Of a DNA stretch of 64,000 bases, positions 19,516 to 47,748 are shown in pieces. Every line of letters begins with the position of its first letter. The stretch's first letter is position 1. The stretch comes from Escherichia phage MN04. The notes beneath the pieces are model-generated. The model was not told the origin of the DNA. It did not search any database and worked only from the letters and a program-made list of their open reading frames with translations. The stretch is from the sequence record MT129654.1, one strand, 5' to 3'. The translations under genes were made by a program, and so were the position numbers.

Positions 19516-19743
19516 ATGAAATTTAAAATCGAAAACGAAATCGTTAAAGCTAAAAATGCTCTGACTGCTAACAAACTGGTTGTAGATGGTATTGAATATG
19601 ATATCTGTGGAGTTCGTGAAGAAAAACCCGGTGTTCTGACTTTCTTCACAATGATTTTTAAATTTAAAGGTGACACAGAATTCAAACAGTTTGATTTTGC
19701 CCCTGAAGACGAAATCGAAGTTCGTAATCTGAACATTAAGTAA
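19516..19743 (+). CDS. Hypothetical protein flanked by duplicated promoter cassettes
   Basis: 75-aa ORF with SD ggag upstream. Confidence 0.45.
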   Translation: MKFKIENEIVKAKNALTANKLVVDGIEYDICGVREEKPGVLTFFTMIFKFKGDTEFKQFDFAPEDEIEVRNLNIK

Positions 19744-19782
19744 GTACTTTATTAGAGCTCTTGAAAAAGAGCTCAAAATAAA

Positions 19783-19811
19783 GTTTACTTCTGCTTTAAA
19801 CATGATACTAT
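19783..19811 (+). promoter_or_regulatory. T4-type early/middle promoter of motA (copy 2 of the 56-nt cassette)
   Basis: GTTTAC 19783-19788, tgcttta 19792-19798, TACTAT 19806-19811; 55/56 nt identical to 19439-19494. Confidence 0.6.
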
Positions 19812-19848
19812 AGACCTATCAAATAAATGAACTGAAACGGAGATTAAA

Positions 19849-20484
19849 ATGTCTAAAATTACTTATATCATCAAAGCTTCTGAAGACGCCCTGAATGAAA
19901 AAACCGCTTCAATCTTAGTACATATCATCAAGCATAACTTCATCACTTCAGGCGAAGTCCGTGAAGCCCTGAGTGAACAATTTAGTGCAGCGGTAGTTAA
20001 CTCTAACATTGGTGTATTGATTAAGAAAGGATTCATCGAAAAATCTGGTGATGGACTGGTGGCTACGGGTGAAGCAATGGACCTAGTTCAAAAAGCTGCT
20101 GACCTGTTCGCTTCTGAAAATGCTCCAGAGATGTTGGAAAAACGTAAAACTCGCAGTTCACGTGGTGTTACTCCTGAAATGGTAGTATTGGCTGGTGAAG
20201 TTAAATCTTTGTTAGAAGACCGAATCGAGATTCGTGAAATCGCTGAAAACCGTAGCAATCTTGAAGTTCGATTCGCTAAACGTACCAACGGTATTCGTCA
20301 AATCGAAGTCCGTCGTGACGGAATGATGCGTATCTTCGGTTATAATATGACCGATAAAGAAAAACAAGTGTTTACTTCCTTGAATCTTGATGTTAAGATT
20401 AAGACTGGTGGTAAGAATACTTATATCGACTTCCAAAACGTATCATCTGAAGTTATCAAAACCGTAACCAACGCAATTATCTGA
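19849..20484 (+). CDS. motA: MotA middle-transcription activator
   Basis: 211 aa, same length as T4 MotA; N-terminus MSKITYIIKAS ... VNSNIGVLIKKG ... EKSGDGL matches T4 MotA as remembered. Confidence 0.9.
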   Translation: MSKITYIIKASEDALNEKTASILVHIIKHNFITSGEVREALSEQFSAAVVNSNIGVLIKKGFIEKSGDGLVATGEAMDLVQKAADLFASENAPEMLEKRKTRSSRGVTPEMVVLAGEVKSLLEDRIEIREIAENRSNLEVRFAKRTNGIRQIEVRRDGMMRIFGYNMTDKEKQVFTSLNLDVKIKTGGKNTYIDFQNVSSEVIKTVTNAII

Positions 20485-20498
20485 CTGAGGAAATTATT

Positions 20499-20828
20499 AT
20501 GAACAAGCTGAATATTGTTAATGAACTTCGTCGTTGTGCAGAACCTACTCAAGAAGGTTGGGATATTTGGTACCATGGCGCTTATCTCGGCACTATTGTT
20601 AAGATTAAAGCAGGTAAATACTTAATCATCCGTGGTGGTTCTGAAGCTTCTATGGGAATTCGTAAGAACTTTATGGCAGCCATCAGCACCTTTGTTCCAG
20701 CTGCTTATGAAGTCTATAAAGCCGACTACAAAGAATACCAGGAATCACAACCGGTTATTCGTTCAATTGGTGTTAATAAAGCTCAACAGAAAACTTTATG
20801 GCAACGTGTTAAAGGATGGTTCAAATGA
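20499..20828 (+). CDS. Hypothetical protein
   Basis: 109-aa ORF preceded by ctgaggaaattattatg. Confidence 0.4.
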   Translation: MNKLNIVNELRRCAEPTQEGWDIWYHGAYLGTIVKIKAGKYLIIRGGSEASMGIRKNFMAAISTFVPAAYEVYKADYKEYQESQPVIRSIGVNKAQQKTLWQRVKGWFK

Positions 20829-21163
20829 TTCCGATGGAACTTAACTGGGACGGCGAAGGTCATTCCCTTAAATTGATTGAAGAACAGCGTAATGATTGGG
20901 ACGAGCGTGTAGCTTTAGTAAACGGTATTAAGAAAATTTACCAACTCAACCTTCATATTGACAATGTTCATCTTGAATTTGGTATGCAGTTATTGCGGTT
21001 TCTTGAGATTATTTTTATAGAAAAGGTAAACATAACTTCGCATGGTGCTGGCCAATCGGTTGTTATTAAATTATCATCCTATTATAAAGGTGATTTAATT
21101 GAAACAGCCACCAAAATTCAAGAATTTGCTAAAGATAACGGCCATAAGGTGATTTTCAAATGA
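20816..21163 (+). CDS. Hypothetical protein
   Basis: 115-aa ORF overlapping neighbours by a few nt (operon-like packing). Confidence 0.4.
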
Positions 21164-21648
21164 ATCCATTAAAAGGTAAAGAATTATCCTTTAAAGACCG
21201 TATGGCTTTATTAGATAAAGCTCTTTCTCGTGAAACACCTGAAAGCTTAGCAGCTAAATTACGAGCCTATGGTGATTACACTGAATATTCGGAAGAGGAT
21301 GTTTTGGAAGAGGTTCCTGAAATCTGTTGGCAGATTGCTCATTGGAACAACAATGAAAAATATCAGCGACGAATTGTGTGTGCAGCCAATCGCTTTAAGT
21401 TAAAAGACGGCGGGACTTTGGTTATTCCTGGCGCGCGTCATTATTCAAAAGATATGGCGGAAGTGCTTGACCAAGTAAGTGATAAACTTGTGTCAGAGCA
21501 TGTTTGCGGTGATGACCAAGGATTTATCGACCAATACTCAAATTATTGGACTCGCGAAGAAGCAATGATTATTGCAACATATGCTAATCAAGTTCGTATT
21601 GAACGTGGTGGTAGTGAAAAAGAACTTTACTCTGAGGACCTTTACTAA
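21160..21648 (+). CDS. Hypothetical protein
   Basis: 162-aa ORF; no motif recognised with confidence. Confidence 0.4.
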
Positions 21649-21929
21649 TGAATCTTAAACAACTCCAGATTGATGCAATCGAAGCCCATATCAACCATAT
21701 TAAACGTCTGAATGTTATGGTGGAAGATAATTGGGGAACTTATGTCAACCAACCGGCTTGGGATGCATTAGATCATGAATATATAAAGAATATTAGTTCT
21801 AAGACAATTCATGGGAATATGGAAGGGTTGAAGCCGTTCCTACGTGATATGTATATTGCAACTAATAAAGAAATTATCAGTTCTCTTGAATATCAATTAA
21901 GGAAATTACGTGAACAATCTTGTAGCTAA
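21648..21929 (+). CDS. Hypothetical protein (size and position compatible with T4 arn; unverified)
   Basis: 93-aa ORF upstream of asiA. Confidence 0.3.
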   Translation: MNLKQLQIDAIEAHINHIKRLNVMVEDNWGTYVNQPAWDALDHEYIKNISSKTIHGNMEGLKPFLRDMYIATNKEIISSLEYQLRKLREQSCS

Positions 21930-22162
21930 GCACGATTTCAATAAGGCTTCGGTCCATAAGGACAAGAAGAAAAATTTTAAAGAGTCCAAGCGTAAGCAGA
22001 AACATAAGGGTAAAGGGTATGAGTCATAACTTAGAGAATACCGTAACAGGTATGCGTACGCGTGAGCAGGAGTGCTTTGAGGAATTCCTAGGAGCTGATT
22101 TTAAGTTCCAGGAACCTATTGAAGAAATGTATCAGGAATATGTTAAAAAGAACGAAGAACAT

Positions 22163-22191
22163 GTTTACAATCCATAAGGATATGTTATTAT
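22163..22191 (+). promoter_or_regulatory. T4-type early promoter of asiA
   Basis: GTTTAC 22163-22168, TATTAT 22186-22191. Confidence 0.6.
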
Positions 22192-22232
22192 AGCCTTATC
22201 AGATAATGTCGTACTGAATTGAAGAGAATATT

Positions 22233-22508
22233 ATGACTAAAATTGAAATCGTTTCCGAAATTGCTACTATTGTTTCCATTTTGATTAAAACGGATTGTGA
22301 AGACATCATGCAACGCCGTGATGAGTTTATTGCCTTTTTGAATGAGTTGGGTATTCGTAATGAACATGGAAAGGAACTTAACGGTCTATCTTTTAATAAA
22401 CTCTTTAAGTCTTTAACTGAAGATGAACGTGATACTCTTATTGAGCAATTTAATGAAGGGTATGAAGATATACACCGTTATCTAATGATGTATACCTCCA
22501 ATTTTTAA
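22233..22508 (+). CDS. asiA: AsiA anti-sigma-70 factor
   Basis: 91 aa; IAFLNELGI ... LIEQFNEGYEDIHRYLMMYT matches T4 AsiA (90 aa) as remembered. Confidence 0.9.
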   Translation: MTKIEIVSEIATIVSILIKTDCEDIMQRRDEFIAFLNELGIRNEHGKELNGLSFNKLFKSLTEDERDTLIEQFNEGYEDIHRYLMMYTSNF

Positions 22509-23158
22509 CGAGTTCGACCTAATGTCCTCCCGGCCTGACCACACATAGACGAAAGTCTAGGAAATCCTAAATCCGGTTTGATGTCATACCAGTATAATGA
22601 TATCGAACCGGCATAGATGTTATCCAAATTAAAAAACGGACATGAAAACATATACGTGAAATGGGTTTTCTTCTTTGTAGGAAGGAACACAGTTTCTGTA
22701 CTTGATTCAAAATAATTCCCGTTAACTCCCGCCATATACTCCACTGACGTTTTGTCAATCGGAAATCCTCCCGTATTTTTTGCGTCTACCGTTTCCGGTA
22801 ATTTACCCTCATAAGCAACCATGTCCACAAAATAATTCATGTTGGTTGGTCTAAAAGAATATATTGCTGTGAAGTCTGCGCCTGAAGAAGAATGCACTAT
22901 TCGGAGCTGCTCGATAGCCGCAATTTTAAATCTATTGTCCTGGTCTTGTCTAATCATTTCAGTATAAGAGGCATAAGTTGTCTCTTTATAAAAGTTTAGA
23001 ATATATTCGCCTTTATACCAAACCAGTGCCATAAAGAACAATAATATTACGACTAGGACCCGGGAAAAAACTACTTTCCCGGAAGAAGTATCTTTAAAAA
23101 TTCTATCAAGAAGTCCAAAAAGTAGGTCTGATAATGAAAATCCTACTTTTGGTTCCAT
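22505..23158 (-). CDS. t: Holin T
   Basis: 217 aa; LLDRIFKD ... FSRVLVVILLFFMALVWYKG, single N-terminal TM helix and large periplasmic domain as in T4 T (218 aa). Confidence 0.9.
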   Translation of the reverse strand: MEPKVGFSLSDLLFGLLDRIFKDTSSGKVVFSRVLVVILLFFMALVWYKGEYILNFYKETTYASYTEMIRQDQDNRFKIAAIEQLRIVHSSSGADFTAIYSFRPTNMNYFVDMVAYEGKLPETVDAKNTGGFPIDKTSVEYMAGVNGNYFESSTETVFLPTKKKTHFTYMFSCPFFNLDNIYAGSISLYWYDIKPDLGFPRLSSMCGQAGRTLGRTR

Positions 23159-23176
23159 ACTTTTCTCCTTTAAAGA

Positions 23177-23184
23177 TATTTATA
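23177..23184 (-). promoter_or_regulatory. T4 late promoter TATAAATA (minus strand) upstream of t
   Basis: plus-strand tatttata at 23177-23184 = TATAAATA on the coding strand of t. Confidence 0.6.
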
Positions 23185-23200
23185 ATTTAATACTTTCGTA

Positions 23201-23974
23201 TTATAACCAAGAGCCGTAGATAGTGCCTGTAGCGCCCCATGATGGGGCGGAACCGAATACTGCTCTACCAGGAGCACCACCACCCGACCTGGATAAGTTT
23301 TTACCCCATCCATCTCCGCCCCAACCTCCAGCATCACCGCCATTGCCTCCGCCGAATTGGGAAGTGTAACCGGCGCCACCTGGACCATCATAACTAGCAT
23401 TGCCACCTGGCCAATTAACACCACCGCCGCCGAGACCAAATGGTCTGCCGCCACCGCCACCTGCTGTAGAATTTGCAGGCCAACTATTCTGTAATGATAC
23501 GGCACCGCCGCCACCACCACCGGAGGCTATCACACCATAATTCCAAATGCGAAGTCGCCCACCAATATCATTTTGGATTACGTCACCACCATTAGTGCCT
23601 GGGCTTCCATTTACGCTACCATTACCACCTCGGCCCCACATATGAACACCACCATGAATATTCAAAGTAACATATTCGTTAGGGGTATCACCGTACATAA
23701 AGAACAACGGAACATCTTTAGTATATGATACTAAGTTGCCTGTGATATTAAACACTATAGGAGCACCGCCGGCTTCAAAACAACGGTCTCTAAACCATTG
23801 CCCGTTAAAGTTATGGTCGGCCCCAAGCGTGTGAATTACTTCAACAGATCGACCTATCATATTACTCATCCAAAAAGGAACACCCATTCTTAATCTTACG
23901 GCTGCTCCTGCCATCCAAGGGTCTCCAGTTTGTACCCTTGCAGACCATCCTACCCACGGTCCTTCAACTGCCAT
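23201..23974 (-). CDS. 38: Long-tail-fibre tip adhesin gp38, T2-type with glycine-rich motifs
   Basis: 257 aa from ATG 23974 (track starts at upstream TTG); repeated poly-Gly blocks (GGGGGG, GGGGG, GGGG) separated by short variable segments; directly downstream of gp37. Confidence 0.85.
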
Positions 23975-24005
23975 ATAAACCTCCAAGGGGCCTAAGCCCC
24001 TCTTA

Positions 24006-27000
24006 TTATTTTAACAATGATTTAACTAAAGCTTTAAGTTCTTCAATCTCTGATTTCAATTCTGTTATTTCGGCAGTATGCTCATTGATTGCAGCTGTAT
24101 TTAAACCAATTACACCGTTATAGTTCAAACGAAGTAAAGCTTCACTATTAGGGTCACCTTCAACCAATTCAGGTAAAATAGCTTGAACTTCTTGGGCAAT
24201 TAAACCAGCATTAGGTTCCCATTTCTGATTACCTTCCTCATCTAGGCCTCGCTTCTGCATATAAGTGTAACCGTTAATTTTAGAAAGCTTCTGAGAAGCA
24301 TTTTCAAATTTAACAAGGTCTTTTTTAACGCGAATATCAGAACGAACATAAACATCACGGACATATGTAGAATAGGCATCACTTTGTTGGATTAAATGAC
24401 CAAAAGAAATAATAGCCCTTCCTGTTTCGGTCCACAAAGCACCGGTGGTATCCCAAAGACCTTGATGGATATGGTAAGAGCTAGACCAAGATGCAATATG
24501 CATACCATTGGCAACCATATTGATTCGGCCATCACCGCCGTGTGATAATCCTGTGTCATTATCACCAATAGCAATACTAGGAGAGCCTAATCCGTTAACA
24601 GTTCCAACACCAATGGCAGGAGTCTGGACTAAAGTCGGGGCGTAAAATAAACCGCTAGAGTGGAATTCGAAAATACCTACAGGACCGTCGCCACGCTCGG
24701 CATTACCTACTCGAATTATCGCTTGTCCCCATGCTTGTGGAGTACGACGCATGCCTAATTCAACAGAAGTAGTATAACCCTGACCACTAATTACAGATCG
24801 GCCTTTAATAATGGGATAATAACTGTCTTCACCCACACTACCAAACTCAAGGAAATAAGGTGCTTCTAAGCCCCATTGGTCACCCCATGCACCAGATTTA
24901 TGTGCAATCCAGTTGGAACCGTTCATATAAATACGGTCTCGGTTTACATTGAATACTGAAGCACCTTGTGGAGATAAAACAACCTCACCATTATGGGTGA
25001 TATTAATACCACCTTGGGATTGGAAGCTCCAGAAGGCTAAACCGTTATCAGCACCACCATTACCTACATACCAGTTATCAACACCACCTTTTTTACCCTT
25101 AACATAACCAGCTTCATCTGCCGGATAATCAATAACAATAGCGTCTGAATTGGTTTTAAGAGTTAAGCGGCCTGTCATTGTGTCCCCGCCTTTACCAACA
25201 CGAGTATTCACCGCTGCGTCAAGGTTAGTAGCACCGCTATACTTGTTCCAAATAGAACCTGCAATATTACCATCAGTATTCATGAAAGCTGTACCGGCAT
25301 ATAAGCGGTTCTGAGCCATGAAGTTACCTTCTTTGGTAAAGCGCCAATATTTTAATCCTGTAGCATCACCATCACCAAGCAAATCACCTTGAGCAACAAT
25401 TCGATATTCACTTGTAGCTCGGTCCATACCTTGAGTAACAGTTACGTTCGAATCAATATTTTTCTGCTTAGTAATAGGGTAAAATGCTTGAGTTGCAGCA
25501 TCGAGCGTTTGATATACCAGAGCTTTAGTCGTGTTCTGGTTGGCATAAGATGCACCGTTACTATTAGGGAATTCTAATGCACCATTACCCCTAAAATAAA
25601 CCTGGTCTGCTTCTAAGTTAGGGATTTTAACCCGACCGGTGTCTAACATAATACTTAATGGGCGTAATGGACCCAATCCGCCACTTTCACCAGCATTAAC
25701 ATTGGTTGGGATAATATGTAGCTGGTCTTCTGAATTTCGAAAAATAACACCATACTTATCATTCCAAATACGAAGACCACTAGCAGCGCGGACTTTAATT
25801 TCATTGGAAACATATAGATTGCGTTTTAAAGATGTATCTTGACTGACAGACAATCCTTCGACGATGTTCATCGTGCCGTTTAAATAAGATTCGACTTTAC
25901 CTGCCGTATTTCGTTGAATATAGTGCATCCAGCCGGTAGCATCAGATGTTTCCAATACGTTTTTACGAGAACCACCTACCGTATTAAAAGTGTCACCCCA
26001 ACCTTTGAGCTCTATATTATCAACTGAACTATATCCTGAGGTACTTCCTTTAAAAAGCACAGTGGAAGCGTTACCACGACCGTCAATATTAACCGAACCA
26101 CCACGGACTTCAACGTTACCAGGAGTAACCAACAACCCACCATCAGTGTTAACGTTTGTTACACCTTTACCACGGAAATAATGGTGGTATTTACCACTCT
26201 GATGATAACCTAAAAGAGTCTGCCCATCACCAAAGCCGTTTTTATCATTAGTAGTATTAACAATAACTAATGGATAGTTTTGAGCTGTAGGAAGAATTAA
26301 ATCAGAACCGTTGGTTGAATAACCCGCAACTAACTGTTTAAGGCTTGTAACTTCAGTCGGAGTTGTAAGTAAAGTATAAGCTCCATTATTAACTGTATGG
26401 AACTGGCCGTCTTGTTTCCATTTCAAACCTGTGTTATTGTCACCAAGAGCAATTGAAGCCGTCCCTAATTCAGAATATCCTTTAGGGCCACCTGGAAGAC
26501 CTACAGAAATAGAATGACCGGCTTTCAATCCACCTGCCCAGTTAAACGACAAAATATAAGTGTCTAAGCCATCTCCGGAATACCAGGCTATTCCGTCATT
26601 AACATTAACTTCGTGGAAAATACCTGCTCCTACAGCATTTCGCATAACACGGAGGTGGTTAATAGCCGTTTCGCTTTCTGCCAATGGAGTGTTATTTGAT
26701 AATGAAGATATATCGTAATCGCCGGCGGCTTTACCGTCGGTAATAACTTTATTAGTATAAATTATTGGAGATTTTACCGATGTTCCACCAGAAATAGATG
26801 GAGCATAAAATAAACCGTCACCGTTGAATGCAAAAATATTAGATGTTGAATTAGTGTAATCCTGAACACGAACATTTAAGATTTGCTTGGTATCCCCAGC
26901 ACGGTTTTGAGAATAAATTATGCCTCTTTCACGCGCATCAGCCAAATCCTGGAATCGAACGTGGGTAGTTCCTGCACCCCGTACAAGAACTTCACCGTTA

Positions 27001-38474: not shown

Positions 38475-39595
<1,121 letters not shown>

Positions 39596-39596
<1 letters not shown>

Positions 39597-40459
39597 TGAA
39601 ACAATACCAATTTTTAATTAAAGATATCCTGGAAAATGGCTACGAAACCGACGACCGTACCGGCACCGGTACAATTGCACTGTTCGGTACTAAATTACGT
39701 TTTGATTTAACTAAAGGCTTTCCTGCAGTAACAACTAAAAAATTAGCATGGAAAGCCTGTATTGCTGAGCTCCTTTGGTTCCTTTCAGGTTCAACTAACG
39801 TTAACGACCTTCGTTTCCGTACTCACGGTTCATTAATTGACGGTAAAACTATTTGGGACGAGAATTATGAAAATCAGGCCAAAGATTTAGGTTATCATAG
39901 CGGTGAACTCGGTCCTGTATATGGGAAACAATGGCGAGATTTTGGTGGTGTCGACCAGGTTGTAGAAATCATCGACCGTATTAAAAAGATGCCTAATGAC
40001 CGACGTCAAATCGTATCTGCATGGAACCCGGCTGAAATCAACCAGATGGCTCTTCCACCATGTCATTGTTTTTATCAGTTCAACGTTCGTAACGGCCATC
40101 TTGACCTCCAGTGGTACCAACGTTCGGTTGACGTGTTCTTAGGATTGCCATTTAATATCGCCTCTTACGCCGCTCTTGTGCATATTGTAGCTAAGATGTG
40201 TAATCTTATTCCGGGTGATTTAGTGTTCTCAGGCGGCAATACGCACATCTATTCTAACCACGTTGAACAATGCCAAGAAGTATTGCGGCGTGAACCTAAA
40301 GAGCTTTGTGAACTGGAAATACGGTATTGGCATAAAGATTTCCATGAGTGGACAACAGAACAACAGTTGGCTTGGGTTACCGGAATGATGTATCCTGAAG
40401 ACTTCGTTCTTAAAGGTTACGAATCACACCCTACTATTAAGGCTAAAATGGCTGTATGA
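39596..40459 (+). CDS. td: Thymidylate synthase, uninterrupted (no group I intron)
   Basis: 287 aa from ATG 39596 (MKQYQ...); active-site region ALPPCHCFYQF; continuous ORF, whereas T4 td carries an intron. Confidence 0.95.
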
Positions 40460-40520
40460 AAATTCAAATAATCTGTACTCTATTTTTGGTTATTATGGTC
40501 GGACTGAATTTGGTGCTATA

Positions 40521-40814
40521 ATGAGAGTCTGTAGAGTTGTTAACAAGTATAAAGAAGATTTTGATGTCAATATCCAGCGTGGAACTATGTGGGGTAATCC
40601 ATTTAAAGACGGTACCCGCGAGGAAAACATCAAGAACTTTAAAGAATACTTTATTGCTAAAATAAAATCGGGTGAAATTAAAAGAGAACATCTTGAAACC
40701 CTTAGAGGTATGCGAATAGCGTGTACCTGTAAACCTAAGGACTGTCATGGGGATGTGATAGCCCTGGTTGTTAACAAACTTTTCAAAGATACGTTCTCAT
40801 TAGAAGACCTATAA
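40521..40814 (+). CDS. Hypothetical Cys/His-containing small protein
   Basis: 97 aa; GNPF motif and CTCKPKDCHGD; unassigned. Confidence 0.4.
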   Translation: MRVCRVVNKYKEDFDVNIQRGTMWGNPFKDGTREENIKNFKEYFIAKIKSGEIKREHLETLRGMRIACTCKPKDCHGDVIALVVNKLFKDTFSLEDL

Positions 40815-40880
40815 ATATCAGTCCATGCTTAACAGGTTCTATGATAGAATAATTGTAGAACCTAACATATTGAGGAAATT

Positions 40881-43136
40881 ATGCAAGTACAAAAGAGTAG
40901 TGGTGTATCCCAAGATTTTGACGCACAAAAAATTATTAAAGTTCTGACTTGGGGCTGTGAAGGAACCCAAATCGACCCCTATGAATTATACGAAGAAATC
41001 AAAACCCACCTTCGTGATGGTATGACTACCAAAGATATCCAAAATCTGACTGTTAAGGTAGCGGCCAACCTTATCTCGGTTGAAGAGCCTGACTATCAGT
41101 ATGTTGCTGCAAAGCAATTGATGTTTGCACTGCGTAAAGAAGTTTATGGCCAGTTCGAACCACGTAGTTTTATCGACCATATTTCCTATTGTGTTAACGA
41201 AGGTAAATATGACCCTGAATTGTTGTCTCGTTATTCTGCAGAAGAAATTACTTTCTTAGAATCTCATATCAAGCATGAACGCGATTTCGAATTGACTTAT
41301 GCTGGCGCAATGCAGCTGAAAGAGAAATATCTGGTTAAAGATAAAACAACCGGTAAAATCTACGAAACTCCTCAGTTCGCTATCATGTGTATTGGTATGG
41401 CCTTACACCAAGACGAGCCGGGTAACCGTTTAGCACATATTATTCGTTTTTATGACGCTGTAAGTACTCGTCAGGTTTCGTTGCCTACTCCTATTATGGC
41501 TGGTGCACGTACTCCAACCCGTCAATTTAGTTCTTGTGTTGTTATTGAAGCAGGTGACTCACTGAAATCTATTAACAAAACTGCAAACTCAATAATTGAA
41601 TACATTTCTAAACGTGCAGGTATTGGTATCAACGTTGGTATGATTCGTGCTGAAGGTTCTCGTATTGGCATGGGTGAAGTCAAACATACTGGTGTTATTC
41701 CGTTCTGGAAACATTTCCAGACTGCTGTTAAATCATGTTCACAAGGTGGAATCCGTGGCGGCGCTGCTACTGCTTATTATCCTATTTGGCATTTGGAAGT
41801 TGAAAATCTGCTCGTTCTGAAAAACAACAAAGGTGTCGATGAAAACCGTATTCGTCATATGGACTACGGAATCCAGTTGAATGACCTTATGATGGGACGT
41901 TTCGGTAAAAATGATTACATTACCCTGTTTAGTCCTCATGAAATGGGTGGTGAGCTTTATTATTCTTATTTTGAAGACCAAGAACGTTTCCGTGAATTGT
42001 ATGAAGCGGCTGAAAAAGACTCTAGTATTCGTAAGAAACGTATTAAAGCACGCGACCTCTTCGAATTGTTTATGACCGAACGTTCAGGCACTGCACGAAT
42101 TTATCCTCAGTTTGTTGATAACACTAACAACTTCACACCATTTATTCGTGAAAAGGCTCCTATTCGCCAGAGTAACCTGTGTTGTGAAATTGCTATCCCG
42201 ACTACCGATGTTAACAGTCCTGATGCTGAAATCGGGTTGTGTACTCTGTCTGCATTCGTATTGGATAACTTTGATTGGCAAGACCAAGACAAAATCAACG
42301 AACTTGCTGAAGTACAGGTACGTGCACTTGATAACTTGTTAGACTACCAAGATTATCCTGTTCCTGAAGCTTTGAAGGCTAAGAAACGTCGTAACCTTGG
42401 CGTGGGTGTTACTAACTACGCAGCATGGCTGGCAAGCAACTTTGCTTCTTATGAAGACGCAAACGATTTAACTCACGAACTGTTTGAGAGATTACAGTAT
42501 GGACTTATCCGAGCATCAATCAAGTTGGCCGAAGAAAAAGGACCTTGCGAGTATTATTCAGACACTAAATGGTCTCGAGGCGAGCTTCCTATCGACTGGT
42601 ACAATAAAAAGATTGACCAAATCGCAGCCCCAAACTATGTTTGTGACTGGTCGTCGTTGCGGGAAGACTTGGCTAAACATGGCATCCGTAATAGCACATT
42701 ATCAGCACTTATGCCATGCGAGTCAAGCAGCCAGGTTTCCAACTCTACCAACGGTATCGAACCTCCGCGTGGTCCAGTAAGTATTAAAGAATCTAAAGAA
42801 GGTAACTTCCGACAGGTAGTTCCTAATGTAGAACATAACCAAGGCCTTTATGATTATGCTTGGAGCCTCGCTAAGAAAGGTAATAAACCTTATCTTACCC
42901 AAGTAGCAATTATGTTGAAATGGGTTTGCCAATCAGCATCAGCGAATACGTATTACGACCCTCAGAATTATGAGAAAGGAAAAGTTCCTATGTCAGTAAT
43001 GCTTGATGACCTGTTATATTTCTGGTACTTTGGTGGTAAGAACCTTTACTATCATAACACCCGTGATGGCTCTGGTACTGACGATTATGAAATCGAAACT
43101 CCTAAAGCCGATGATTGCGCAGCTTGTAAGCTTTAA
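40881..43136 (+). CDS. nrdA: Ribonucleotide reductase large subunit
   Basis: 751 aa; class Ia RNR size and T4 synteny td -> nrdA -> nrdB. Confidence 0.92.
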   Translation: MQVQKSSGVSQDFDAQKIIKVLTWGCEGTQIDPYELYEEIKTHLRDGMTTKDIQNLTVKVAANLISVEEPDYQYVAAKQLMFALRKEVYGQFEPRSFIDHISYCVNEGKYDPELLSRYSAEEITFLESHIKHERDFELTYAGAMQLKEKYLVKDKTTGKIYETPQFAIMCIGMALHQDEPGNRLAHIIRFYDAVSTRQVSLPTPIMAGARTPTRQFSSCVVIEAGDSLKSINKTANSIIEYISKRAGIGINVGMIRAEGSRIGMGEVKHTGVIPFWKHFQTAVKSCSQGGIRGGAATAYYPIWHLEVENLLVLKNNKGVDENRIRHMDYGIQLNDLMMGRFGKNDYITLFSPHEMGGELYYSYFEDQERFRELYEAAEKDSSIRKKRIKARDLFELFMTERSGTARIYPQFVDNTNNFTPFIREKAPIRQSNLCCEIAIPTTDVNSPDAEIGLCTLSAFVLDNFDWQDQDKINELAEVQVRALDNLLDYQDYPVPEALKAKKRRNLGVGVTNYAAWLASNFASYEDANDLTHELFERLQYGLIRASIKLAEEKGPCEYYSDTKWSRGELPIDWYNKKIDQIAAPNYVCDWSSLREDLAKHGIRNSTLSALMPCESSSQVSNSTNGIEPPRGPVSIKESKEGNFRQVVPNVEHNQGLYDYAWSLAKKGNKPYLTQVAIMLKWVCQSASANTYYDPQNYEKGKVPMSVMLDDLLYFWYFGGKNLYYHNTRDGSGTDDYEIETPKADDCAACKL

Positions 43137-43189
43137 TAAAATCTGATTATAATTGACTCATGGATGAGTCACTAACAAATGAGAATAAC

Positions 43190-44329
43190 ATGTCTACAGT
43201 TTTTAATACTACCCCAGTTGATGTTTTAGTCGAACCGATGTTCTTTGGTTCAGGATTGGGTATTGCTCGTTACGATATCCAACGTCATAAAGTATTCGAA
43301 GAGCTTTGTGAAAAGCAGTTGAGTTTCTTCTGGCGTCCAGAGGAAGTTAACTTGATGATGGATGCTGCCCAGTTTAATAAGCTTCCACAATTCCAACAAA
43401 ATATTTTTACCAATAACCTGAAGTATCAATCACTTCTGGATAGTATCCAGGGACGTGCGCCGTCTGCTGCACTCCAAGCCTTGATTTCAGACCCTAGCCT
43501 TGATACTTGGGTGGCTACATGGACCTTTAGTGAAACCATTCACTCTCGTTCGTATACCCATATCATGCGTAACCTTTATACAGACCCATCTAAGGTATTT
43601 GATGAAATTCTGTTAGATGAAGCTATCATGAAACGTGCTGAATCTATTGGTCGTTATTATGATGATGTTATTGAGAAAACCAGACTTTACCAGAATGCCT
43701 TAGAAGAATATCATGAGTTTAGCGAAGGCGTAAAACAGGCCAAATACGAACTAATGCGCTCTCTTTACCTCTGCCTGCATGTAATCAATGCATTGGAAGC
43801 TATTCGTTTTTACGTATCTTTCGCATGCACCTTTAACTTCCATAAGAATATGGAAATCATGGAAGGTAATGCTAAGATTATGAAGTTCATTGCACGTGAT
43901 GAACAGCTTCACCTTAAAGGCACCCAATATATTATTCGTCAACTCCAGCTTGGTACTGATGGTGATGAATGGGTTAAAATTGCTCAAGAGTGCGAACAAG
44001 AAGCAGTTGATATTTTCATGGAAGTTAACCGACAAGAAAAAGAGTGGGCTGCGCACCTGTTCAAAGACGGTACTTGCCCTGGATTAAATACTCAGAACAT
44101 GGGTGCTTTTGTCGATTACCTGACAGTTTCTCGTATGAAGCAATGTGGCTTACCATGTCCTATTACTGATGCTCCTACTCGCCATCCATATCCTTGGATT
44201 CGCGAATACCTGAACTCTGATGCTGTACAGGCTGCTCCTCAGGAAGTGGAAATCAGTTCTTACCTTGTAGCACAAATTGATAATGATGTCGATGAAAAAG
44301 TAATGGCGTCATACAAGAAATATTTTTAA
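43190..44329 (+). CDS. nrdB: Ribonucleotide reductase small subunit, uninterrupted (no group I intron)
   Basis: ATG 43190 (MSTVFNT..., track starts at upstream ATG 43160); di-iron/tyrosyl radical protein class; continuous ORF. Confidence 0.92.
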   Translation: MSTVFNTTPVDVLVEPMFFGSGLGIARYDIQRHKVFEELCEKQLSFFWRPEEVNLMMDAAQFNKLPQFQQNIFTNNLKYQSLLDSIQGRAPSAALQALISDPSLDTWVATWTFSETIHSRSYTHIMRNLYTDPSKVFDEILLDEAIMKRAESIGRYYDDVIEKTRLYQNALEEYHEFSEGVKQAKYELMRSLYLCLHVINALEAIRFYVSFACTFNFHKNMEIMEGNAKIMKFIARDEQLHLKGTQYIIRQLQLGTDGDEWVKIAQECEQEAVDIFMEVNRQEKEWAAHLFKDGTCPGLNTQNMGAFVDYLTVSRMKQCGLPCPITDAPTRHPYPWIREYLNSDAVQAAPQEVEISSYLVAQIDNDVDEKVMASYKKYF

Positions 44330-44356
44330 GGAATGGGGCTTCGGCCCCTTATTGCT

Positions 44357-44770
44357 ATGAAAGAAATCGCAGATGAATTTAGCTTTATCAAGTACGTTAC
44401 ACTGGAGCTCCAAACAGATGCTACTATAGCCCCTATCACGGTTCCAAACAAACAAAATGTCATATATGCTATAGCGGTTGATGATATACTAGTCTACATC
44501 GGGAAGACTAAAAATCTTCGTAAGCGCATCAACTACTACCGAACAGCTATTAATCGTAAGGACCAAACGTCGGATTCGACCAAGTCCATTCTGATTCATG
44601 AAGCATTAATGGCTGGTAAAAAGGTAGAGTTCTATGCTAGACAGTGCTTTAATCTGTCGATGACTAACGAACTTGGAACTATGTCAGTTGAGACCATGTC
44701 TCTTGAAGAGCCAATGTTCATAAAGAAATTTAATCCACCTTGGAATACCCAACATAGGATAAAGCAATGA
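44357..44770 (+). CDS. denA: Endonuclease II (GIY-YIG family)
   Basis: ATG 44357 (MKEIADEF...); VIYAIAVDDILVYIGKTKNLRKRINYYRTAINRKD GIY-YIG core matching T4 EndoII as remembered. Confidence 0.85.
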   Translation: MKEIADEFSFIKYVTLELQTDATIAPITVPNKQNVIYAIAVDDILVYIGKTKNLRKRINYYRTAINRKDQTSDSTKSILIHEALMAGKKVEFYARQCFNLSMTNELGTMSVETMSLEEPMFIKKFNPPWNTQHRIKQ

Positions 44771-47235: not shown

Positions 47236-47269
47236 GCTCCTACGGATTATAAAAATTGAGGAAATTATT

Positions 47270-47748
47270 ATGACTTTACGTGATAACAGTTTTGTAGCTA
47301 AGCCTGAATACATTTCAGGTGTTAAATCGCCCGCATTACAAAAGCTCCTAAAACTAGGGTCCTGTGCAAGTACACCACTTGAAAAGAAGGCAACTTTCGA
47401 TTTTGCTTGGGCTATTGTGGACGGTATTGATGTAGTAAGACAGGTAACTTTTTATGCTCCAGGGTCTATTGAGCCTTCGCAGATTATTAATTTGAATGGA
47501 AGTAATTATATTACCATCCAACAGTGGTATCGTATGATGCGCCCAGTTTGGGAATACCCTGAATTCATTGAAGAGTACAATGAAAAAGAACGTATTCGTG
47601 AATTGGTGAAAAGTTTTGAATACGCGGCTAAACGCCATGGCCAAATGCAATCCGCAGTAACTCTCGGCGATGTTCCTGAAAGTGTTGCTTATGAATCCGG
47701 TAAAACCCTTAAAACCTGCCGTGAAGAACTTTATAAGGAGCTTGGTGT

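Follow-up and report, generated by a model that had tools for sequence, protein, structure and literature searches.

An uninterrupted thymidylate synthase gene with an empty td intron site in a Dhakavirus phage

In the td gene of phage T4 (protein NP_049848, crystal structure 1TIS), a group I intron of 1,017 nt with the endonuclease I-TevI interrupts the coding sequence after codon 183. The annotated T4 record, in which td is joined from two pieces and the I-TevI ORF lies within the intervening sequence, confirmed this premise of an earlier note on the DNA described here. The intron covers nt 550-1566 and starts TAATTGAGGCC. Its endonuclease recognises ~38 bp (PMC5009752; PMC2988022). The cleavage motif is CNNNG, natively CAACG, with C1 and G5 as critical bases (PMC5009752). 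The cuts lie 23 and 25 nt upstream of where the intron inserts; I-TevI binds a 20-bp region centred on the insertion site, and many substitutions in the homing site are tolerated (PMC2988022). T2, a classical T-even phage, carries a natural td allele without the intron (AY310907). The JS98 and JS10 genomes have no homing endonuclease genes, and intron-borne endonucleases were confined to the T-even cluster in a 2010 review (PMC2993671). The td genes of the Dhakavirus phages JS98/JS10, UP19, KIT01 and IME08 have no intron and lie in the order frd, 68-aa ORF, td, nrdA.1, nrdA and nrdB.

The locus analysed here resembles these Dhakavirus loci in the gene, in its neighbours and in the lack of an intron. 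It lies within a stretch of DNA of 64 kb, termed the window. The nucleotide identity of its td with the Dhakavirus td genes is 91.5-93.7%. Over the td region, the window is 94-95.6% identical to UP19, KIT01, JS10 and JS98. Collinearity with JS98 extends over the whole window, whose source is a JS98-type (Dhakavirus) T4-like phage. It represents a distinct strain, since no record in the phage collection exceeds 95.6% identity over the td region. The T4 gene encodes an orthologous enzyme with Cys156 in the same frd/nrdA/nrdB cluster. The T4 locus differs by a direct overlap of frd and td and by nrdA.2 between td and nrdA.1, whereas the window has an additional small ORF, orf68, and lacks nrdA.2. 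The T2 allele shares the motif CAACG at the same position with the window; it is ~95% identical to the T4 exons, in contrast to ~77-79% for the window. The features of the region are compiled in Table 1.

Table 1. Features of the td region; positions refer to the window.
Feature	Position	Strand	Evidence
frd, dihydrofolate reductase	38812..39393	+	PF00186, E 4.6e-19; JS98 annotation
orf68, 68 aa, between frd and td	39390..39596	+	phrog_9550 (unknown function), E 1.4e-43
td, ThyA-type thymidylate synthase, uninterrupted	39596..40459	+	ORF and translation, PF00303, phrog_160, 1TIS, T4 TD alignment
Active-site motif ALPPCHCFYQF, residues 152-162	40049..40081	+	Sequence; aligned to ALPPCHMFYQF of T4 thymidylate synthase (1TIS)
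CAACG, I-TevI cleavage motif	40118..40122	+	-27 to -23 from the insertion site, native distance
Equivalent of the ~38-bp I-TevI homing site (motif, spacer, primary binding region)	40118..40157	+	30/40 identical to T4
Empty intron insertion site, codons 183/184, TTAGGA/TTGCCA	40144..40145	+	tblastn exon mapping; base-level alignment with spliced T4 td
nrdA.1 homologue (DUF4326), not an endonuclease	40521..40814	+	PF14216, E 7.9e-22; 65% identical to T4 NrdA.1 (tblastn)
nrdA, ribonucleotide reductase large subunit	40881..43136	+	ORF; collinear JS98 annotation
nrdB, ribonucleotide reductase small subunit, uninterrupted	43190..44329	+	tblastn against the T4 locus

The td ORF runs from an ATG to a TGA stop codon (40457-40459) and has 864 nt, that is, 287 codons and the stop. 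A program-made ORF list opens the gene four codons earlier, with a TTG at 39584. The ATG was chosen as start because it gives the N-terminus of T4 TD (MKQYQ...) and shares bases with the stop of the upstream ORF (TAATG). The product matches the Pfam profile PF00303 (Thymidylat_synt) over its entire length (positions 1-266 of 266) with 328.7 bits, well above the curated cut-off of 24.3, and an E-value of 3e-98. The match to phrog_160, thymidylate synthase, has an E-value of 4.8e-126. The sequence of the T4 crystal structure aligns from end to end (residues 1-287 to 1-286, E 4.4e-165), and in a global alignment with T4 TD 235 of 287 residues (82%) are identical. The bacterial enzyme of E. coli, ThyA (1AOB/2TSC), belongs to the same family and, by sequence, to the same fold class (E ~1e-74, full length).

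Hallmarks of the ThyA family (EC 2.1.1.45) are a catalytic cysteine in a P-C-H context, arginines for dUMP binding, and the motifs YQRS-D...N and TH-Y. The window TD carries the nucleophile Cys156 in ALPPCH, encoded by TGT at 40061-40063. In this motif and in DRTGTGT, YGKQWR, DRRQIVSAWNP, YQRSVDVFLGLPFNIASY, YQRSVDVFLGLPFN and GGNTHIY, the window TD does not differ from T4 thymidylate synthase. The earlier note had described td as a continuous 287-codon ORF with the active-site region intact; both statements hold, and its coordinates were correct. The enzyme, presumably a homodimer as is typical of the family, would methylate dUMP to dTMP with methylene-tetrahydrofolate, with Cys156 as nucleophile. 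We infer this activity from the catalytic motifs, which are completely conserved, and from the differences from T4 near the active-site region, which are purely synonymous. A decaying, non-functional copy that only appears intact is hardly conceivable: no evidence for this reading was found in td, the profile match is full-length, the catalytic motifs are those of T4, there is no frameshift or stop, the synonymous differences around the active site indicate purifying selection, and td is in one piece in all relatives (43/43).

A segment near the C-terminus of TD, located on the surface, is highly divergent even from JS98. It comprises residues ~241-270 (window ~40316-40405) and reads EIRYWHKDFHEWTTEQQLAWVTGMMYPEDF in the window and EINLPEEFILWDTKTQLSWVDSMKPSDF in JS98, the window being two codons longer. 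The first 720 nt of td are ~95-96% identical to JS98. In a printed alignment, part of the segment corresponds to a 13-residue insert that is missing from the bacterial thymidylate synthase 7TA9. Relative to 7TA9, the phage enzymes have extra segments after residue ~75 and, with these 13 residues, after residue ~250.

The gene lies in a conserved nucleotide-precursor cluster with the order gp32 ... frd, orf68, td, nrdA.1, nrdA and nrdB. Dihydrofolate reductase recycles the folate cofactor and is the partner of td in the thymidylate cycle. The stop codon of frd overlaps the start of orf68 (ATGA). This overlap and that of orf68 with td indicate a likely translational coupling of frd, orf68 and td, which may form one transcription unit. 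A scan for promoter and terminator consensus sequences between 38400 and 41000 yielded counts at or below the expectation from shuffled sequences. The small ORF is 97% identical to the translated, unannotated gap between frd and td of JS98 and is also present in IME341. It is missing from T4, T2 and ECO07P3. T4 and ECO07P3 have no gap at this position, frd directly overlapping td, and the gap of T2 is occupied by an unrelated ORF of ~120 aa. WG01, QL01 and Bp7 apparently lack orf68 as well, their matches beginning ~205 nt into the query. The junction between frd and td is thus a variable insertion slot. A remnant of an endonuclease was considered for orf68 and rejected: it had no Pfam match even at E<=10 and no similarity to I-TevI, I-TevIII or MobE, and its only PHROG match is of unknown function.

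Downstream of td, a spacer of only 61 nt (40460-40520) precedes nrdA.1. A homologue of nrdA.2 was not found in the window; the best tblastn match had an E-value of 0.073 and was on the wrong strand. The spacer between nrdA and nrdB has only ~50 nt, without an equivalent of mobE or nrdB.1. For nrdB, the program-made ORF opens at 43160; the start that resembles T4 and JS98 (MSTVF...) is at 43190. In tblastn, the T4 nrdB intron falls between the matches of NrdB residues 1-212 and 214-379, and the window nrdB is continuous there.

The td intron site itself is empty. In a tblastn search of the window TD against T4 td, residues 1-183 matched T4 nt 1-549 and residues 184-287 matched nt 1567-1875. The base-level alignment with the T4 td exons is collinear, and no extra bases are present between 40144 and 40145. 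The window td is only 3 nt longer than the spliced T4 td, due to a one-codon indel near the C-terminus, which leaves no room for an intron. A search with the Rfam family Intron_gpI in permissive mode gave no match in 38800-44400 even at E<=10. In the same mode, the T4 td intron as positive control was detected with 40.3 bits and an E-value of 2.5e-8. Homologues of I-TevI, I-TevIII and MobE were not detected by tblastn in the whole window, the best E-value being 0.73. None of the three parts of the T-even element, insertion, ribozyme core and GIY-YIG ORF, was found. Exon alignment, permissive Rfam scan and tblastn thus support the view of the earlier note that td contains neither an intron nor an endonuclease ORF.

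The default Rfam scan was discarded as evidence. At the gathering threshold, it gave no match in the window, but also none in the T4 locus with its two group I introns. Both the td and the nrdB intron (T4 136000-148000) are missed; the td intron, with 40.3 bits, falls short of the cut-off of 50. Negatives of the default Rfam scan cannot exclude ORF-carrying introns in phages.

The distribution of the intron was surveyed in one GenBank-derived phage collection. All 43 closest td genes, with 87-94% identity, are single uninterrupted pieces. Similarity to td was present in 1,419 phage records, and 771 of these hold at least 80% of td in one piece. Sequence of the T4 intron occurs in 260 records (most of the intron in 197). 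The intron-bearing td records examined, T4, ECO07P3 and CJY920, are all Tequatrovirus. With the one-piece genes outnumbering the intron-positive records and T2 lacking the intron, an intron-less td is the rule: most phages have this state, T4 being the exception. The stretches of the window without JS98 counterpart have at most 721 nt. They lie in the distal tail-fibre gene, in a few short intergenic replacements and at the window end beyond the compared JS98 stretch, and none of them leaves space for an unnoticed endonuclease gene close to td. Relative to JS98, the window has no insertion of the size of an endonuclease gene.

These observations are best explained by a functional td of a Dhakavirus phage that is uninterrupted since its lineage never fixed the td intron and I-TevI, and this reading is almost certainly correct. 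Intron and endonuclease would spread only by homing during co-infection. The locus would then be an empty, naive insertion site, neither lost nor unusual. We infer that the site was never invaded; an ancient precise loss with a decayed footprint would look alike. The finding of an intron-less td is correct but ordinary, as a documented state of the JS98 lineage: this lineage was published without homing endonuclease genes, and intron-less td genes are common. Annotation of the gene as the thymidylate synthase gene td of a Dhakavirus phage is correct, with little significance beyond that. It fits the published picture of the td/I-TevI element as a sporadic parasite of T-even phages.

The site may nevertheless have become a poor substrate for I-TevI by synonymous divergence, so that the intron would be barred even during co-infection. 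This is unlikely, although 10 of the 40 positions of the homing site differ from T4, namely -22, -19, -16, -13, -10, -4, -1, +1, +3 and +6 relative to the insertion site. All these differences are synonymous, and the encoded peptide YQRSVDVFLGLPFNI is the same as in T4. Around the insertion site, 16 of 21 positions are identical; the five differences fall inside the 20-bp region that is bound by the DNA-binding domain (PMC2988022). The bases TTTAATA at +7 to +13 are kept, and I-TevI is generally tolerant of changes in its homing site. The cleavage motif is intact at the native distance. The predicted nicks are between 40121 and 40122 on the top strand and between 40119 and 40120 on the bottom strand.

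The sequence of the spacer between motif and binding region affects I-TevI activity, and the natural td spacer of RB32 is cut less well (PMC4065259), which would favour a resistant allele. The window spacer is identical to T4 at 10 of 15 positions and differs at spacer positions 1, 4, 7, 10 and 13. The sensitive spacer positions 2, 6 and 8 and C3 (PMC4065259) are unchanged. Motif and 15-bp spacer together are 15/20 (75%) identical to T4. In a TALE-fusion assay with the I-TevI nuclease and linker, natural td variants with 53-87% identity to T4 were cut no less well than T4 (PMC4065259), and the window lies inside this range. In this sequence comparison, the cleavage motif is correctly placed and the spacer is compatible with the linker. 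Resistance is further opposed by mosaic genes of the ECO07P3 type, in which Dhakavirus-type and intron-bearing alleles recombine beside the cut site. The empty td site is plausibly a naive, cleavable homing target of I-TevI. As a natural divergent substrate with CAACG, it could be used to study how much target drift I-TevI tolerates, and it could show whether the td intron can cross from Tequatrovirus to Dhakavirus. The homing-site stretch is the same as in JS98 except for one base. The Dhakavirus IME341 has CAGCG at the position of the cleavage motif, in contrast to CAACG in the window and JS98; thus, the motif is polymorphic within Dhakavirus.

A secondary loss is very improbable. An ancestor with the td intron would have lost it precisely, by recombining with an intron-less allele or with cDNA made from spliced mRNA. 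Such a sequence of invasion, decay and precise loss is predicted by the homing cycle model (PMC5009752), and decayed td introns without ORF do occur, for instance the 254-nt intron of CJY920, together with partial introns in the collection. However, an intron or a remnant was present in none of the 43 closest Dhakavirus-type td genes, and JS98-type genomes have no homing endonuclease genes at all (PMC2993671). The flanking exon also has no T-even-like co-conversion tract: the identity of window and T4 beside the empty site is 0.73-0.77, the same as elsewhere in td. The lack of such a tract speaks against an intron that was once acquired and later lost, and for a site that never contained it.

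A mosaic td with an intron is present in three Tequatrovirus genomes, ECO07P1, ECO07P3 and CJY920. Its nt 1-492 resemble Dhakavirus, and from nt 501 onward it is of the T-even type. Two of the three carry the full 1,016-nt intron with I-TevI, and CJY920 has the ORF-less 254-nt version. For the first 480 nt of the mosaic gene, the nearest relatives are only Dhakavirus: IME341 with 96.5%, C6 with 96.0% and IME08 with 95.2% identity. The identity of the mosaic exon 1 with T4 is only ~75%. Where T4 and IME341 differ, ECO07P3 follows the Dhakavirus type at almost every such site up to nt 492. From nt 501, it is T-even-like at most sites, and at nearly all with T2 as the T-even reference. The frd gene immediately upstream of the ECO07P3 td is 95.7% identical to T4. 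The distance from the breakpoint to the I-TevI cleavage motif downstream of it is 22-31 nt. An apparent swap of a 3' segment in the td of CUA3 was rejected as an artefact of a run of N in the record.

The mosaic gene looks as if two alleles, a JS98-type one without the intron and a T-even one with it, had recombined in nature, and ordinary recombination may also have produced it. Co-conversion of exon I is known during homing of the td intron (PMC2988022), and the breakpoint beside the I-TevI cut site fits such an event. It is tempting, if rather doubtful, to suppose that the window td is a live, cleavable I-TevI target and that T-even and JS98-type td genes are exchanged in nature via repair initiated by I-TevI. 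Exchange across phage genera linked to homing endonucleases was not convincingly shown as of the 2010 review (PMC2993671). If the supposition is true, the mosaic td would be natural evidence for such an exchange; this concerns other genomes and not the window.

Elsewhere in the window, a segment of 318 nt without a JS98 match (47264-47581) is a small replaced segment. By collinearity, it is located in or beside the stretch between orf217 and pseT.2 of JS98, which has no annotation. Sizeable stretches that lack a match in JS98 are limited to 24211-24787 and 25203-25872, both in the distal long-tail-fibre region. By collinearity with JS98, the gene is gp37; the flanking stretch 19737-24210 is only 85% identical. 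The divergence from JS98 in this region is probably a divergence in receptor binding.
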